Below are positions 17,089-32,385 of a DNA stretch of 64,000 nucleotides, in pieces. Position 1 is the stretch's first letter; each line of letters opens with the position of its first letter. Origin of the DNA: Candidatus Spongiisociaceae bacterium. Its GTDB lineage: Bacteria; Actinomycetota; Acidimicrobiia; Spongiisociales; Spongiisociaceae. Position numbers and translations under genes: made by a program. Below the pieces are notes generated by a model. It ran no database searches, was not told the origin of the DNA, and saw nothing but the letters and a program-made list of their open reading frames with translations. Location: assembly GCA_965219685.1 (NCBI GenBank), contig CBDCOH010000002.1:544001-608000 (forward strand), read 5' to 3'.

Positions 17089-17215
17089 GTGGTGAGTGGT
17101 GAGTGGTGAGTGGTGAGTTGTGAATGGTGAGTGGCGAGTAGTGACTTAGACTACCACAACCAACAACTAACAACTAACAACTAACAACTAACAACTAACA
17201 ACTAACAACTAACAC
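17085..17215. repeat. Paired heptamer arrays: (GTGAGTG)x~8 and (AACAACT)x~8 between convergent genes
   Basis: Directly visible; each array contains the stop codon of its flanking gene. Confidence 0.95.
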
Positions 17216-18075
17216 CATTCCTCCGGCTCGGGCCGATCGATCTCCAGGACCTTCTGCTCCTCCAAACGGGCCGTGACGGATCTCAGCGTCTCGTAACGCA
17301 GCCCGGAACGCAACGCTTCCAGCGCCAGGACCCGTTCCGGGGCGATGTTCCCGAGGCTCACGTTCATGCCGAAGCGGTCGATCAGCGTGGTCTGCTGTTC
17401 CTTGAGCGGCGCCTCCCAGACCAGCCGGTGGTTGGCCTCGCCGATACGGGCCGCGACGGTCTCCACCGCCTCGAGGTCGACGTGGCCGGCGGTGTCGTAC
17501 ACGCCGACTCCCGTTCCCGACTCGCGTCCTTCCATTACCACCCACGATGAGCCCCACTCGAGATCGCTCAGCACCTGGGAGGCCAGGTCGTCGGGATCGG
17601 GCTGGGTCTCCGGGTCCTTCTTGCCCACCTCGCTGATCACGATCAGGTCGGCGCTGAGACCGCATTCGATAGCCCGCCTCCGCCGTTCGGGGGGTAGGTC
17701 GAAGGTGCCCTCCGAAATCTCGACGGCGGTGAAGCCCATGCGGCGGGCGGCGCGCATGTAGTGCCGGCAGTGCCGGTGGGCGGTGGCGGCCTCGAATAGG
17801 GTTCCACCGGGGAAGGTGAGGGTTCCGGTTGAGTTGATCAGTTCCAGCTTCTTCCGCAGGACGGGCTCTGGTACCAGTGCCGAAGTGCCGAAGCTGAGCT
17901 TCCAGTGGTCGATCCACTGGCCGGCCATGTCCAGGAGTTCCGCGGTCTGCGACAAGCCGAGACCGGTGTCGATCACCATGGTGATGCCACGGGCGCGTGG
18001 CTTCCCGGTCCGGCCGGTGCGTACCTCCTCGGCGACGGCCAAGTCGTACCAGCCGGGCCGGTCCCCGGGGTTCAC
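17209..18075 (-). CDS. comA: Phosphosulfolactate synthase (ComA/XcbB-like), first step of CoM biosynthesis
   Basis: [69 protein letters not shown] start overlaps the 2-KPCC stop. Confidence 0.93.
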
Positions 18076-19654
18076 AGATCCTGGAGGTTCTTGTTGCCGG
18101 CTCGCAGGCGGGAAAGCTGGATGAAGTGGGTCGGGTTCAGGAACAACTCGTCCATCTCCGCGAGCTGGTCGACCGTGAGCCCCCTGCGGTAGAGCTGGAA
18201 CAGGTACTGGAAGGCGTCCCTCGCCCCTGCGCCGACGTGGTGGGCGCCGACCACCTTCCTCGAGGCGGAAGCGATGACCAGCTTCTGGAAGCCGGACATG
18301 CGCGGCTTGGCGAACGCGTAGAGCATCATCCGGTCCGTGGCGGGCAGAGCAACGTCCCACCCGTCCTCGGAGTCGGGCGGCATCTTGATGATCGTGACAT
18401 CGCCGTATCGCTCCCGGGCCTCCTCCTCGCCCATCCCGAACCAGGTCACCTCGTAGTGGGTGTGCAGGAAGTCGGGGAACTCCCTGAACTCGTAGTGGAT
18501 GTCCTCGCCCATGATGTGCCGCGACGCGTACATGCCCGACTTGCGAGCCTTGAACATCTCCATCGGCGGGCCGATCAGGTCTCCGATCGCGTACACGTTG
18601 GGCACAGAGGTCTGCATCTGTGGGTTGACCATGATGGTGCCGTCGTCGTTGAGTTTGACCCCGAGCACATCCGCGGCCATCTCCGAGTTGGGGATCTCGC
18701 CCAGACCGTGGAACACGAAGTCTGTCTCGATATAGCGGGTCCCGTCCGGGGTGGAGATGGTTATCCCCTTGACCTTGCCGGCGCCGTCCCCATGGACTTC
18801 GGTGGCCACGGAACCCTCCCAGATCTCCATGCCCTGCTCCTCCATCATGGTGATCACGTAGTTGCGGGTCTCGCCGTCGTTCAGGAGCTTCAGGAGCTTG
18901 GAGCGCACCACCATGATCGTGCGGCGTCCGGTGGCCTGGAAGAAGGAGCCGTACTCGACGGCGGTCTTCGAACCGCCGATGACCACCACCGTGTCGCCCG
19001 GTTCGTAGTCGAGATCCTCCACCAGGGTCTCGTAGGTATAGACACCGTGCAGGTCGGCGCCCGGGCAGGGCAGGGGACGTGGGCGGGCGCCGAGCGCCAG
19101 GATCAGGTTGTTGGCGGTGAAGACCCGGCCGGCCACCTCCACCGTGTTGGCGTCGAGGATCGTCCCCGGCGCGTTCAGGACGTACTCGAGGTCGAGTTGC
19201 TCCTTGCTCTGGAAGTTCATGATCGCATGGGGCGCGATCCGGCCTGCCCGGAACAGGTCGACGATCTCCTTGATCGAGGTGATCTTCCCGTCGAGGTCGG
19301 GGAACCAGTACTGCCCGCTGAAAGTGCGGGCCAGCATCAGCTCGGCCGCCACCTCGCTGAACAGGTGATGCGGGACGCAGGCGTTGTGGGGGCACGAACC
19401 GCCCAGGAACGGCCACCGGTCGATGATGAGCTGGCGACCTCCATGGCCCGCATGTAGGCCGACCCGAACCTGCCGGCGGCCCCACCACCCAGGAAGATCG
19501 CGTCGTAAGGCCGCGGGTCCTCCTCGTCAACGTTGAAGACCACCCGGTCGTCCTCCGGGTCCTCGAGCATGGAGTCGATCTCGGGACCCCAGTCATGGAT
19601 GCTTATCGGATCCTGGGTGCGGATGTCCCAAATGGTCTTCGTTCGGGTCGCCAT
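18072..19654 (-). CDS. xecC: NADPH:2-ketopropyl-CoM oxidoreductase/carboxylase (2-KPCC), split by a 1-nt deletion at ~19441
   Basis: [22 protein letters not shown] | [78 protein letters not shown]. Closely matches Xanthobacter Py2 XecC as recalled. Confidence 0.92.
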
Positions 19655-19953
19655 CGCATGAACCTCCGTGCGTTGCCTTCTCGAGTTGTTCGATTGATGC
19701 CGGGACGAGCGCTCGTCGGGTGTCGGTGCGGCCGGAATATCCGCAAAGATAATTTATCGACCGAGAACTCCCGACGGTCGTCTCAGGGTGGGCGCCGTAC
19801 GAGCCTCATCCCACACCGGCGTGCCTCTGGTATCTGTCAGCCATGGATTGTACCCGAACGACCGGTGAGGACTGCCCGCTCCCGGCCCTTAGGCCCGTGC
19901 TGTCGGTTCCACTCCCTTCCTCGCCGGTTGTCTGACAAGTAAGGTAGGTAGGG

Positions 19954-30574: not shown

Positions 30575-32172
30575 GCGCGCGGCCGGAGGAGGAACTAGGG
30601 GCGGAGGTAGACCGCCTCCTGGCGGTGATCGAGGGCGGCGTGTTCGGGGGCGCCGATCCGGCGACCGCGGCCGCCATCGAGGCTCCCGAGGGATACCTCG
30701 GGGCGGAGGGGCGATTGGGGTCAGGTCCATCTCCGGCCCTGGTCGACGCCGGCTACCGCTTGGAAGTGGCAGATGCCCGTATCCTTCACGAGGGTTTGTG
30801 TCTGGCCGACCTCGCCCACGTTCTGGAACTGGTGGATGCGGAGGTCGCCCCGAGGAGGGCGGCGGCCCGGTTGTGCCGCGTGCTTCTCGATTTCCTCTCC
30901 ACCCCGGTGGAGTCCTTCCCCTACGACCCCTTGTACGGCGATGCGTACAACAGCCGGGAACGGGAGCTGGAACGCCGGATCGGTGCGGCCGCAGGATGGC
31001 TCCCGACCGGGCGCACCCGTCGCGAGGCAGGACGCCTCGCGATCCGCCTCGCCCTCCGCAGCCGCATCCTTGATCTTCACACGGCGGTCGCGGGCCTTGC
31101 CACCAGGCTCGTGCAGAGGGCGCTGGAATTGGCGTCCGTCCCGTGGAACGACACCACATACCTGCAACCTGCCCAGCCTTCCTCGTTCGGCTACTACCTG
31201 GCCGGCTTCGCCGAACAGGCCATTCGGGACCTCCAACGTGTCCGGAGTTGCCACCGGTGGGCGAACCTCTCGCCGGGCGGTTCCGGTGGCGTGGGTGGGA
31301 CTTCCATCCCCCTGAGCCGGGGGAGGATCTCGGACCGGCTGGGATTCCGCCGGCCGACACGCCACATCCGCGACGGCATGTGGTCGGCCGACGGGATGGT
31401 CGATTGCACGGTCGCCGCGACCCAGGCGGTCATGAACGCCGACCGCCTCGCCGAGGACCTCGAGGTGTTCGCCACGCCCCAGTTCGGTTACGTAGCCCTG
31501 GGAGGTTCCTCGTCGAGGGCCTCGGTGTTGCTTCCCCAGAAGCGCAACCCGTACGCCTTGGCGGTGATCCGGGGAGGCTGCGGGACGCTGATCGGCAGAT
31601 CCACCGGTCTGATGAGCACGCAGCGGACCCCGTCGGCCCGAACCGACAACTGGCTCTACGCCTACGGCGAAGTCACCGGCTCCGTGGAGCTGGCGGGTTG
31701 CCTGTTGCGCTTGGCGGCCGATGTCGTCACGACCATGGAGGTCGACGTCGGGAGGTTGGCGGACTCTGCGGGCGACAACTTCACCACTGCCACCGACCTC
31801 ACCGAACTCCTGGTGCTCGAGCGCGGCCTGGACTACCGGAGCGCGTACCGCATCGTCGGGCGGGCGGTGGCGAACGTGTCCGAACGCGAGGGGACCAGGG
31901 TGGCCGCCGTGGACCTGGAACGGGCGGCGGGGGAGTGCGGGATCGATCTCTCCGGTCTCTCCTCGGCGGTCGAGCGGGCGGGCGATGTCGACGCCCTCAT
32001 CTCGTCGCGCGGCTCTCCCGGAGGGTCGGCCCCCAACCGGGTGGCGGAGCATTGCGGATCGGTACTCGAGCGGGTTCGGGGAGCCCTAGAGTGGGCTCAA
32101 GCTGCCAGGCACGCCCACGAGTCGGCGACCACCCGGCTGCTGGCGGAGGCTTCGGCCTTGGCAGAGCGGTGA
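30571..32172 (+). CDS. Argininosuccinate lyase-family enzyme (candidate XcbC, phosphosulfolactate phosphate-lyase)
   Basis: GRTRRE, TYLQPAQP, ASVLLPQKRNP (degenerate SSxMPxKxNP), YRSAYRIVG. Confidence 0.8.
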   Translation: MSARPEEELGAEVDRLLAVIEGGVFGGADPATAAAIEAPEGYLGAEGRLGSGPSPALVDAGYRLEVADARILHEGLCLADLAHVLELVDAEVAPRRAAARLCRVLLDFLSTPVESFPYDPLYGDAYNSRERELERRIGAAAGWLPTGRTRREAGRLAIRLALRSRILDLHTAVAGLATRLVQRALELASVPWNDTTYLQPAQPSSFGYYLAGFAEQAIRDLQRVRSCHRWANLSPGGSGGVGGTSIPLSRGRISDRLGFRRPTRHIRDGMWSADGMVDCTVAATQAVMNADRLAEDLEVFATPQFGYVALGGSSSRASVLLPQKRNPYALAVIRGGCGTLIGRSTGLMSTQRTPSARTDNWLYAYGEVTGSVELAGCLLRLAADVVTTMEVDVGRLADSAGDNFTTATDLTELLVLERGLDYRSAYRIVGRAVANVSEREGTRVAAVDLERAAGECGIDLSGLSSAVERAGDVDALISSRGSPGGSAPNRVAEHCGSVLERVRGALEWAQAARHAHESATTRLLAEASALAER

Positions 32173-32196
32173 CGGACTCGCGGTTGGGAGGTAACC

Positions 32197-32385
32197 ATGC
32201 CGGTGCTCAGGATCGTGTGTCCCGACTGCCGGAACGAGTATCGCTCGCTCGTGGTGGCCGGCGCCAAGGTTCCGACCGTCTGGGTGTGCCCGGAGTGCTC
32301 GGGACGCGGAGCGAGGGTCGCCGAGGTGCTCCGCGAAGCAAACCATCCCTGGTCAGGCGAATCGATGGACGAATGCTGCGGATGA
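32197..32385 (+). CDS. Small zinc-ribbon protein (FmdB-like) ending in CCG
   Basis: CPDC..CPEC; GGGAGG RBS; last gene of the operon. Confidence 0.7.
   Translation: MPVLRIVCPDCRNEYRSLVVAGAKVPTVWVCPECSGRGARVAEVLREANHPWSGESMDECCG

Follow-up and report, generated by a model that had tools for sequence, protein, structure and literature searches.

A predicted coenzyme M-dependent epoxide carboxylation island on the chromosome of a sponge-associated Acidimicrobiia bacterium

Gene content and organization of the island

The stretch of DNA analyzed in this work (hereafter, the window) comprises 64,000 nucleotides from a Candidatus Spongiisociaceae bacterium, namely, positions 544001-608000 of contig C2 (CBDCOH010000002.1) in assembly GCA_965219685.1. 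This host genome (G000) consists of two contigs, 4.42 Mb in all, and is 96.7% complete with 5.93% contamination. Positions 16168-32172 of the window form one chromosomal island of ~16 kb, located ~560 kb inside the 4.39-Mb contig, whose genes very likely specify both a coenzyme M (CoM) pathway acting on short aliphatic epoxides and the synthesis of CoM itself (Table 1). The pathway, which would turn such epoxides and CO2 into central metabolites, is a known one that occurs here in a lineage and a sponge habitat without an earlier link to it, and the island includes one candidate new component, an F420-dependent oxidoreductase of the luciferase-like monooxygenase (LLM) class. Genes were called from a listing of open reading frames (ORFs) together with Pfam, NCBIfam, and PDB matches; judged by these, the island appears complete and well conserved.

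Table 1. Predicted genes of the island and other features. Positions are those of the window unless a genome or locus is named.
Feature	Predicted product or description	Position	Strand	Match or remark
LLM	F420-dependent LLM-class oxidoreductase	16168..17088	+	TIGR03564, 288 bits (cut-off 234)
comA/xcbB	Phosphosulfolactate synthase	17209..18075	-	PF02679, E 7.6e-79; TIGR03849, 301 bits (cut-off 280)
xecC	2-Ketopropyl-CoM oxidoreductase/carboxylase (2-KPCC)	18072..19654	-	PDB 1MO9; one base missing near 19440-19445
acs	ADP-forming (NDP-forming) acyl-CoA synthetase, fused alpha + beta	20480..22519	-	CoA_binding_2, Succ_CoA_lig, ATP-grasp_5
ctB	CoA-transferase subunit B	22516..23343	-	PF01144
ctA	CoA-transferase subunit A	23322..24236	-	PF01144, E 3.2e-25
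sdr1	etn-type hydroxyalkyl-CoM dehydrogenase; short-chain dehydrogenase/reductase (SDR) like S-hydroxypropyl-CoM dehydrogenase (S-HPCDH)	24241..25008	-	PDB 4GH5/4ITU
sdr2	SDR like R-hydroxypropyl-CoM dehydrogenase (R-HPCDH)	25059..25817	+	PDB 2CFC; likely start is Met near 25077
xecA	Epoxyalkane:CoM transferase (EaCoMT; 2-hydroxypropyl-CoM lyase)	26172..27278	+	PF01717, MetE-like
xcbA	DUF7714, [2Fe-2S] reductase of last CoM step	27328..28287	+	NF052538, 377 bits (cut-off 150)
xcbD	3-Sulfopropionyl-cysteine synthase (adenylosuccinate-lyase-like)	28284..29630	+	NF052536, 668 bits (cut-off 600)
xcbE-like	Pyridoxal phosphate enzyme	29627..30574	+	Best NCBIfam match NF052537, 207.7 bits, under cut-off of 450
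xcbC-like	Aspartase/fumarase-superfamily lyase (phosphate elimination from phosphosulfolactate)	30571..32172	+	Best NCBIfam match NF052535, 395.5 bits, under cut-off of 575
7-nt repeat arrays	Tandem repeats	15197..15346, 17085..17214, 20440..20484, 36256..36302, 36790..36827, 45776..45921, 52832..52892, 54189..54223
SDIMO region	Soluble diiron monooxygenase (SDIMO) operon including neighbors	G000:C2:4002017-4008750 (L003:8017..14751)
NBB4 pMYCCH.01 set	CoM, 2-KPCC, and CoA-transferase genes	L093 14404..30729
sdr1-like pair	Genes around the dienelactone hydrolase gene	L096 (G023:C5:11000-30999) 8863..11431

The genes are arranged in tight units, namely, sdr1-ctA-ctB-acs, xecC-comA, and sdr2-xecA-xcbA-D-E-C, with 4-nt overlaps at xecC/comA (where the GTG start of comA overlaps the xecC stop as GTGA), ctB/acs, xcbA/D, xcbD/E, and xcbE/C. 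On the LLM side, the island is flanked by genes for an acyl-CoA carboxylase (ACC), a BirA-like ligase, and a dienelactone hydrolase (DLH); on the xcbC side, the flanking genes encode LCP, UDP-glucose dehydrogenase (UGDH), CofE, and CofD. The GC content of the island block is not distinct from that of these flanks. No regulator or monooxygenase gene was found near the island. Scans of positions 16900-32700 yielded no promoter (shuffle mean 1.5) and six terminators, i.e., none above the shuffles (mean 6.0).

An earlier note on this DNA, made from the sequence alone, had described a CoM-dependent epoxide carboxylation and CoM biosynthesis cluster embedded among housekeeping genes on the chromosome of a probable Acidimicrobiia bacterium. 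Our analysis agrees with it on these points: every gene that it named was recovered in its place by Pfam, NCBIfam, and PDB matches, the surroundings are the ACC-to-CofD genes listed above, the setting is the 4.39-Mb contig, and the host is a sponge-type member of the Acidimicrobiia, as indicated by the nearest loci described below. Its placement of the start of the unit at 17209 had to be revised, as the unit starts one gene earlier with the LLM oxidoreductase (16168).

Predicted enzymes of epoxide carboxylation

XecA is predicted to be an EaCoMT based on its MetE-like domain, its Zn ligands, and its closeness to the characterized enzyme of Xanthobacter autotrophicus Py2. It is 77.0% identical to Py2 XecA (over 99% of the length), 47.4% to EtnE of Nocardioides JS614, and 44.7% to EtnE of Mycolicibacterium chubuense NBB4. 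The Zn ligands H242, C244, and C363 (H-x-C + C; numbered along the 392-aa ORF P0001, 26100..27278) are invariant in 14/14 aligned sequences, including Py2 XecA.

The C-terminal 456 aa of XecC match 2-KPCC (PDB 1MO9) with an E value of 1.9e-207 and keep the equivalents of its C82, C87, R365, F501, and H506, counted along the alignment. The segment CPHNAC aligns with 1MO9 residues 82-87, which form the redox-active Cys pair, and FLNPTH aligns with residues 501-506, the Phe-His dyad. The roles of these five residues are taken from passages of PMC8358701, in which the F501-H506 dyad is described as turning a disulfide reductase into a carboxylase and replacing the His-Glu of ordinary disulfide oxidoreductases (DSORs).

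In the deposited sequence, xecC is split over two frames, with the change located just after the FAD-binding motif. This frameshift is very probably a homopolymer error of the assembly and not gene decay, because the missing base is carried by independently built contigs of three sequencing runs and by all matching relatives. Logan contigs (not raw reads) have an extra C behind position 19440 at full depth, with 16.3/16.3 in X1, 10.3/10.3 in X4, and 16.7/16.7 in X5. X1 and X4 represent one sample, probably the source, and X5 is a sponge metagenome; X6, which is marine, does not reach this site. Likewise, 46 of the 80 loci compared in this work gave a match to a 141-nt stretch around the frameshift, and 46/46 have one base more. 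The case would illustrate how homopolymer errors in this assembly can mimic pseudogenes. Other apparent frameshifts in the host genome may share this cause.

For the two SDRs, the best PDB match of sdr2 is 2CFC (R-HPCDH; E 1.4e-66), and the protein keeps the equivalents of R152, Y155, K159, and R196. The Tyr and Lys of this set are the catalytic residues of SDRs. The two arginines, Arg152 and Arg196, bind the sulfonate in R-HPCDH (PMC11199699). The best match of sdr1 is S-HPCDH (4GH5/4ITU; E 2.2e-60), and this protein is 64-70% identical to SDRs of the NBB4 clusters, compared with 49% to Py2 XecE.

The remaining genes of this part encode a putative two-subunit CoA-transferase and an acyl-CoA synthetase, for which roles have been proposed (PMC8727900; PMC11507031). 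The ctA product is 63.5-64.2% identical to homologs in NBB4 and JS614 and 48.7% to that in Py2, ctB is 62-67% identical to the etn-linked subunit of NBB4, and acs is 58% identical to the homolog on NBB4 plasmid pMYCCH.01 and 41% to that on pMYCCH.02.

Genes for CoM biosynthesis

All five bacterial CoM biosynthesis genes, namely, those for ComA/XcbB, XcbC, XcbD, XcbE, and XcbA, appear to be present in conserved synteny; the five steps and the function of XcbA follow the account in PMC9457059. The predicted XcbA has five Cys, each kept in 61/61 homologs. The XcbC-like protein is 53-59% identical to its NBB4 homologs, and the XcbE-like protein is 43-48% identical to NBB4 homologs at the same position.

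Distribution and evolution of the island

A scan that covered one genome per GTDB species found XecA relatives in 221 species representatives, and the best 80 of these 221 loci were kept for comparison. The nearest loci are from Acidimicrobiia metagenome-assembled genomes (MAGs), several of which are titled 'Candidatus Spongiisocius' or Spongiisociaceae. In the family of the host, XecA is encoded by 21/29 genomes: it is present in all genomes of genera g1 (8/8, including the host) and g3 (2/2) and in 11/12 of g7 and absent from g2 (0/3), g4 (0/1), g5 (0/1), and g6 (0/2). An even sample of the class (401 genomes) contained seven XecA carriers, six from the host family and one from a neighboring family; outside the host family, the count is thus 1/395. 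Sequencing runs labeled as sponge, marine, and coral metagenomes contain 0.32-0.54 of the words of the region; of these, the sponge run X5 and the marine run X6 were compared with it in detail. No RNA run appeared among the sequencing runs.

A quick maximum-likelihood tree of XecA was inferred from the 80 loci plus the window, Py2, and NBB4, and all 83 rows were retained. The 27 Acidimicrobiia rows form one group (SH-aLRT 85), which is sister to 33 Actinomycetes-type rows, including Pseudonocardia, Actinomycetospora, and Kineosporia, with a support of 99 for the pair. Methylococcaceae come next, Py2 together with the other Proteobacteria and the Chloroflexota are basal, and the EtnE of NBB4 is a very long outgroup branch.

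The gene order, with comA-xecC-acs-ctB-ctA-sdr1 on one side and sdr2-xecA-xcbA-D-E-C on the other, is kept in 8/8 complete Acidimicrobiia loci displayed (L004, L008, L009, L014, L018, L020, L023, and L030). Among the Acidimicrobiia loci displayed, XecA is 85-98% and XecC 85-95% identical, which argues for purifying selection on both.

The edges of the island were defined by comparison with family members that lack XecA. Genomes G001 and G003 have the backbone BirA-DLH-LCP-UGDH with DLH directly beside LCP; BirA lies ~8 kb from DLH in G003, and in G001 the ACC gene upstream and CofE-CofD downstream were also found. Because DLH adjoins LCP in both, the block from LLM to xcbC (16168-32172) represents a single presence/absence unit. 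DLH itself was considered as a cluster member and dropped, being present in 29/29 family genomes regardless of XecA. In G023, the only XecA-negative genome of g7, two sdr1-like genes (70 and 58% identity) flank DLH at the island site, and this pair may represent a remnant or a replacement.

An F420-dependent oxidoreductase as a candidate member

We propose that the LLM oxidoreductase is an extra member of the island. It adjoins XecA clusters in 29/80 loci, in three gene orders: convergent with comA in the Acidimicrobiia loci; on the strand of xcbC in 16 loci of the Actinomycetes clade, directly beside xcbC in 14 and beside xecC in two; and between ctB and xecC in a Caldilineaceae locus. Within the family, LLM and XecA occupy exactly the same 21/29 genomes, and the DLH-LCP indel includes the LLM gene. 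Copies with at least 63% identity were found in 8/401 genomes of the class sample, seven of which are all seven XecA carriers, and the next matches fall to 44-48%. In G027, XecA is located 614 kb from LLM, yet XecC adjoins LLM. Among 72,556 plasmids, LLM matches above 42% were found only on NBB4 pMYCCH.01 (53.6%) and the JS614 plasmid (51.9%), and the closest paralog in the host genome is 40% identical.

Other observations count against this tie. G394 has a 64% identical LLM copy and neither XecA nor XecC, the genomes compared are kin and hence not independent observations, and joint loss would follow from adjacency alone. In addition, the terms 'F420', 'LLM', and 'luciferase' are absent from the main text of the paper on the vinyl chloride cluster (PMC8727900). 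An F420 review (PMC8498797) offered no passage that joins F420 to epoxide or CoM metabolism. Among PDB entries, the protein has distant Mer, Fgd, and Adf relatives only (best E 3.5e-27), which are too distant for a substrate or function to be read from them. The cofE and cofD genes (36827..38448) are located ~4.6 kb downstream of the island; their closeness to an F420-dependent enzyme is probably backbone synteny, as they occupy the same place in genomes that lack the island.

Repeats and other sequence features

Arrays of 7-nt tandem repeats (with units such as CACGATT, GTGAGTG, ACAACTA, and TCACCAT) occur in spacers at gene ends in the window, and two of these arrays are located where comA and acs end. 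At 20440-20475, a 36-nt tail has 92 further matches in the chromosome, often offset by 7, 21, or 28 nt. The spacer between xecC and acs (19655..20479) is ~825 bp here and, as estimated from match starts, roughly 70 bp in L004, 140 bp in L009, 480 bp in L014, and 1840 bp in L018. It contains an ORF of 134 aa (19954..20358, + strand) whose predicted product has a hydrophobic N-terminus; within it, a 21-nt repeat encodes a 7-residue repeat. This ORF was dropped as a candidate cluster member, having a match in 0/80 loci. The second contig of the assembly, C1 (30,458 bases), has a GC content of 59.2%, compared with 65.3% for the chromosome, and may represent plasmid, phage, or foreign DNA.

Comparison with known systems

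The island shares its main enzymes with the Py2 plasmid pXAUT01: XecA (77% identity), 2-KPCC (67% over 456 aa, with the same Cys pair and Phe-His dyad), the R-HPCDH-like and S-HPCDH-like SDRs (49% each), ComA (55%), and XcbA, C, D, and E (38-47%). However, the Py2 genes are located on a conjugative plasmid beside an alkene monooxygenase and a LysR regulator, whereas the island is chromosomal with neither nearby. Moreover, the CoA-transferase homolog of Py2 (48.7%) is encoded elsewhere on its plasmid, whereas here the CoA-transferase and synthetase genes are inside the cluster, and the sponge island has the F420-dependent LLM attached.

For the etn clusters of the ethene and vinyl chloride oxidizers NBB4 (plasmids pMYCCH.01 and pMYCCH.02) and JS614, the similarities include CoA-transferase A/B (62-67%), synthetase (41-58%), the etn-type SDR (64-70%), the second SDR (58%), XcbA, C, D, and E (43-59%), and ComA (37-38%). 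In contrast, EtnE (the EaCoMT of these strains) is only 45-47% identical and a far outgroup in the tree, and the clusters are plasmid-borne with a group-4 EtnABCD monooxygenase and MEDS regulators, both of which the island lacks. On NBB4 pMYCCH.02, the counterparts are ctA (64%), ctB (62%), sdr1 (64%), acs (41%), XcbA/D/E/C (43-59%), and XecA (45%). Plasmid pMYCCH.01 of the same strain encodes two XecC-like proteins (57 and 53%), each of which keeps the F-x-x-x-x-H dyad, together with both SDR types (58 and 70%), ctA/B (64 and 67%), acs (58%), XcbA/C/D/E (48-59%), and LLM (54%); no XecA match was found on this plasmid at E 1e-40.

Another counterpart is the single chromosomal cluster without an alkene monooxygenase reported for Methylohalobius crimeensis and other methanotrophs (PMC11507031), which has an XecA-type EaCoMT, an SDR, CoA-transferase A/B, a DSOR, and CoM biosynthesis genes. 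In the Methylococcaceae loci that we found, the XecA-type EaCoMT is 77-80% identical. The proteobacterial loci differ in having no match to the LLM or to the acyl-CoA synthetase of the island, and the M. crimeensis cluster, according to PMC11507031, differs in its location on a predicted genomic island, in the presence of a MEDS regulator, and in the replacement of XcbA by another enzyme. According to the same source, methanotrophs, Mycobacterium JS60, and Py2 combine EtnE with an SDR, a two-subunit CoA-transferase, an NDP-forming synthetase, an E3-like oxidoreductase, and genes for CoM. Because of this reported set, the content of pMYCCH.01, and the presence of ctA beside xecA in 66/80 loci and of ctB in 65/80, across all phyla sampled, the make-up of the island is the usual actinobacterial one.

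These comparisons bear on several claims of the earlier note. It described the cluster as combining Xanthobacter-like enzymes with CoA-transferase and ligase genes; by the same three lines of evidence, such a combination is not unusual. The identities fit its impression of a mosaic, but XecA alone is distinctly of the Xanthobacter type (77% to Py2, compared with 45-47% to actinobacterial EtnE). Finally, its view of a new lineage and setting for bacterial CoM holds in that no paper in our searches connected this lineage with CoM, but the cluster is not rare in sequence data, as seen from the 221 GTDB representatives and from the 27 Acidimicrobiia and 33 Actinomycetes rows in the tree.

In the literature searched, no paper linked Acidimicrobiia or a sponge lineage to coenzyme M or epoxyalkane; the naming paper and its supplements lay outside the search, so a prior mention is possible. 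Literature on Spongiisocius/Spongiisociaceae consisted of a nomenclature note only, and the articles that cite the naming paper added nothing to this. The terms 'coenzyme M', 'monooxygenase', 'epoxide', and 'alkene' do not occur in the main text of a comparison of 350 sponge Actinobacteriota genomes (PMC11706023), and a paper on an Acidimicrobiia isolate (PMC11697166) contains coenzyme M in one reference title only. One sentence in PMC4412061, under methane metabolism, mentions a phosphosulfolactate synthase transcript in sponge.

Proposed pathway and possible sources of epoxides

In the proposed pathway, the CoM thiol would open the epoxide by the action of XecA, and the two SDRs (R-HPCDH-like and etn-type) would convert the hydroxyalkyl-CoM to its keto or aldehyde form. 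The 2-KPCC, with its Phe-His dyad, would then cleave the thioether with NADPH and carboxylate the enolate. The acid product may be acetoacetate from three-carbon substrates and malonate semialdehyde or malonate from two-carbon substrates, as proposed for etn clusters, and it would be converted to a CoA ester by the two-subunit CoA-transferase, with the ADP-forming acyl-CoA synthetase supplying or balancing the CoA donor. ComA/XcbB, XcbC, XcbD, XcbE, and XcbA would make CoM from phosphoenolpyruvate, sulfite, and cysteine. The LLM oxidoreductase would belong to the same unit.

The epoxides may come from the host's own monooxygenase of the toluene-monooxygenase type, an SDIMO located 3.4 Mb away, although we hold this idea tentatively and at somewhat less than even confidence. 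It is the only SDIMO in the host genome (C2:4002017-4006732) and has six genes in an unusual order: alpha, TmoB-like gamma, MmoB, beta, Rieske ferredoxin, and FAD reductase (glutathione-reductase-type), preceded by DJ-1/PfpI and SnoaL/NTF2-like genes. At ~1e-166, its alpha subunit matches those of toluene/o-xylene monooxygenase and toluene-4-monooxygenase, and its closest plasmid relative (66.9%) is an operon of the same order in Rhodococcus koreensis. An SDIMO of any kind (PF02332) was found in 10/29 family genomes, and 10/10 of these are among the 21 XecA carriers. An alkene monooxygenase linked to the CoM genes was not found; the SDIMO belongs to an uncharacterized subgroup of the toluene-monooxygenase type.

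Several observations weigh against the assignment of the island to this pathway or against its coupling to the SDIMO. The XcbC-like and XcbE-like proteins score below their NCBIfam cut-offs (395.5 against 575 bits and 207.7 against 450 bits, respectively). In sdr1, the equivalent of Lys208 is kept, but that of Arg205 is Thr; in S-HPCDH, these two residues serve the sulfonate (PMC11199699). The same Lys and Arg-to-Thr state is found in all eleven actinobacterial-type SDRs aligned (the island, NBB4, six Acidimicrobiia loci, and three Actinomycetes loci). Therefore, sdr1 may prefer either enantiomer and may act on two-carbon or three-carbon substrates. For two-carbon substrates, the steps past the SDRs are described as unproven even in model strains (PMC11507031). 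The SDIMO is about equidistant from toluene monooxygenases (~50%), the Py2 alkene monooxygenase (47.7%), and 'isoA' of ELW1 (47.6%), and therefore its substrate is not readable from identity. The R. koreensis plasmid with the related SDIMO has no XecA match, PF02332 had no match in 11/21 XecA carriers, and the SDIMO is never beside the island in the seven genomes with both on one large contig (G000, G004, G005, G008, G010, G011, and G012). A link between the SDIMO and the island is thus possible but weak.

Among the other explanations, three concern the identity or integrity of the island. The proteins could be ordinary MetE-like, disulfide-reductase, SDR, and lyase paralogs unconnected with CoM, an outcome that the earlier note had named as one that would refute it and that the generic Pfam and NCBIfam names (methionine synthase, MerA/lipoamide dehydrogenase, FabG, and adenylosuccinate lyase) would fit. 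Yet XecA is 77% identical to a characterized XecA, the 2-KPCC-specific Phe-His dyad and the sulfonate-binding arginines of R-HPCDH are present, XcbA, XcbD, and ComA score above curated cut-offs, and all genes are co-located, which makes this explanation extremely improbable. Nearly as improbable is a decaying cluster, in which a real frameshift in the 2-KPCC gene would have abolished the carboxylation step: the deposited sequence does place this gene in two frames, but the extra base is at full depth in the contigs of X1, X4, and X5 and in all 46 matching relatives, and the remainder of xecC is intact at the 85-95% identity to Acidimicrobiia orthologs given above. A foreign origin of the island, by mis-binning or very recent transfer, might be considered given the contamination estimate of 5.93% and the plasmid-borne, mobile clusters of model strains. 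We regard it as extremely improbable as well, because the island lies 560 kb inside the 4.39-Mb contig, its GC content is in line with that of its flanks, the same flanks (DLH; LCP and UGDH) are found in three relatives displayed (L004, L012, and L046), and the XecA tree joins all Acidimicrobiia rows (SH-aLRT 85).

A more serious alternative accepts the same enzymes and assigns them another role, namely, scavenging or detoxifying epoxides that arise outside the cell through other holobiont members or unspecific oxygenases, with some carbon and CO2 gained, instead of supporting growth on alkenes that the cell's own monooxygenase has oxidized. The 11/21 XecA-positive family genomes without an SDIMO, including the near-closed G021, G026, and G027, are consistent with this role, and these SDIMO-free carriers still keep the full island. 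The copper monooxygenase family PF02461 was found in 0/29 family genomes, but the search control matched nowhere either, and this result shows little. A precedent is M. crimeensis, for which the cluster without an alkene monooxygenase was proposed to serve epoxyethane detoxification (PMC11507031). On the other side, an SDIMO is present in the host genome, XecA occurs in all 10 SDIMO carriers, a carboxylating 2-KPCC with CoA activation looks like assimilation, and the epoxide source in sponges that this role calls for is hypothetical. Scavenging is still to be taken seriously, particularly in genus g7, although we consider it less likely than not. A bolder combination, in which the LLM oxidoreductase would be an unrecognized working part of epoxide metabolism or CoM supply in Actinomycetota that ties F420 to CoM, and in which the sponge family would use the island mainly to capture holobiont-made short-chain epoxides while fixing CO2, is conceivable but rather unlikely.

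Biological implications

Bacterial use of CoM has so far been studied in a handful of alkene oxidizers from soil and freshwater, in which the genes are mostly plasmid-borne. The predicted CoM-dependent epoxide pathway described here is stably maintained on the chromosome in a sponge-associated family of Acidimicrobiia, being present in 21/29 species of the family compared with 1/395 other class members sampled. Because the model strains NBB4 and JS614 have the LLM oxidoreductase in their clusters as well, this enzyme can be put forward as a concrete candidate for an unassigned step of the pathway. About half of the carriers have no recognizable alkene monooxygenase, which makes the origin of the epoxides a testable question. 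The island suggests that short alkenes or epoxides are turned over inside sponges, with uptake of CO2.

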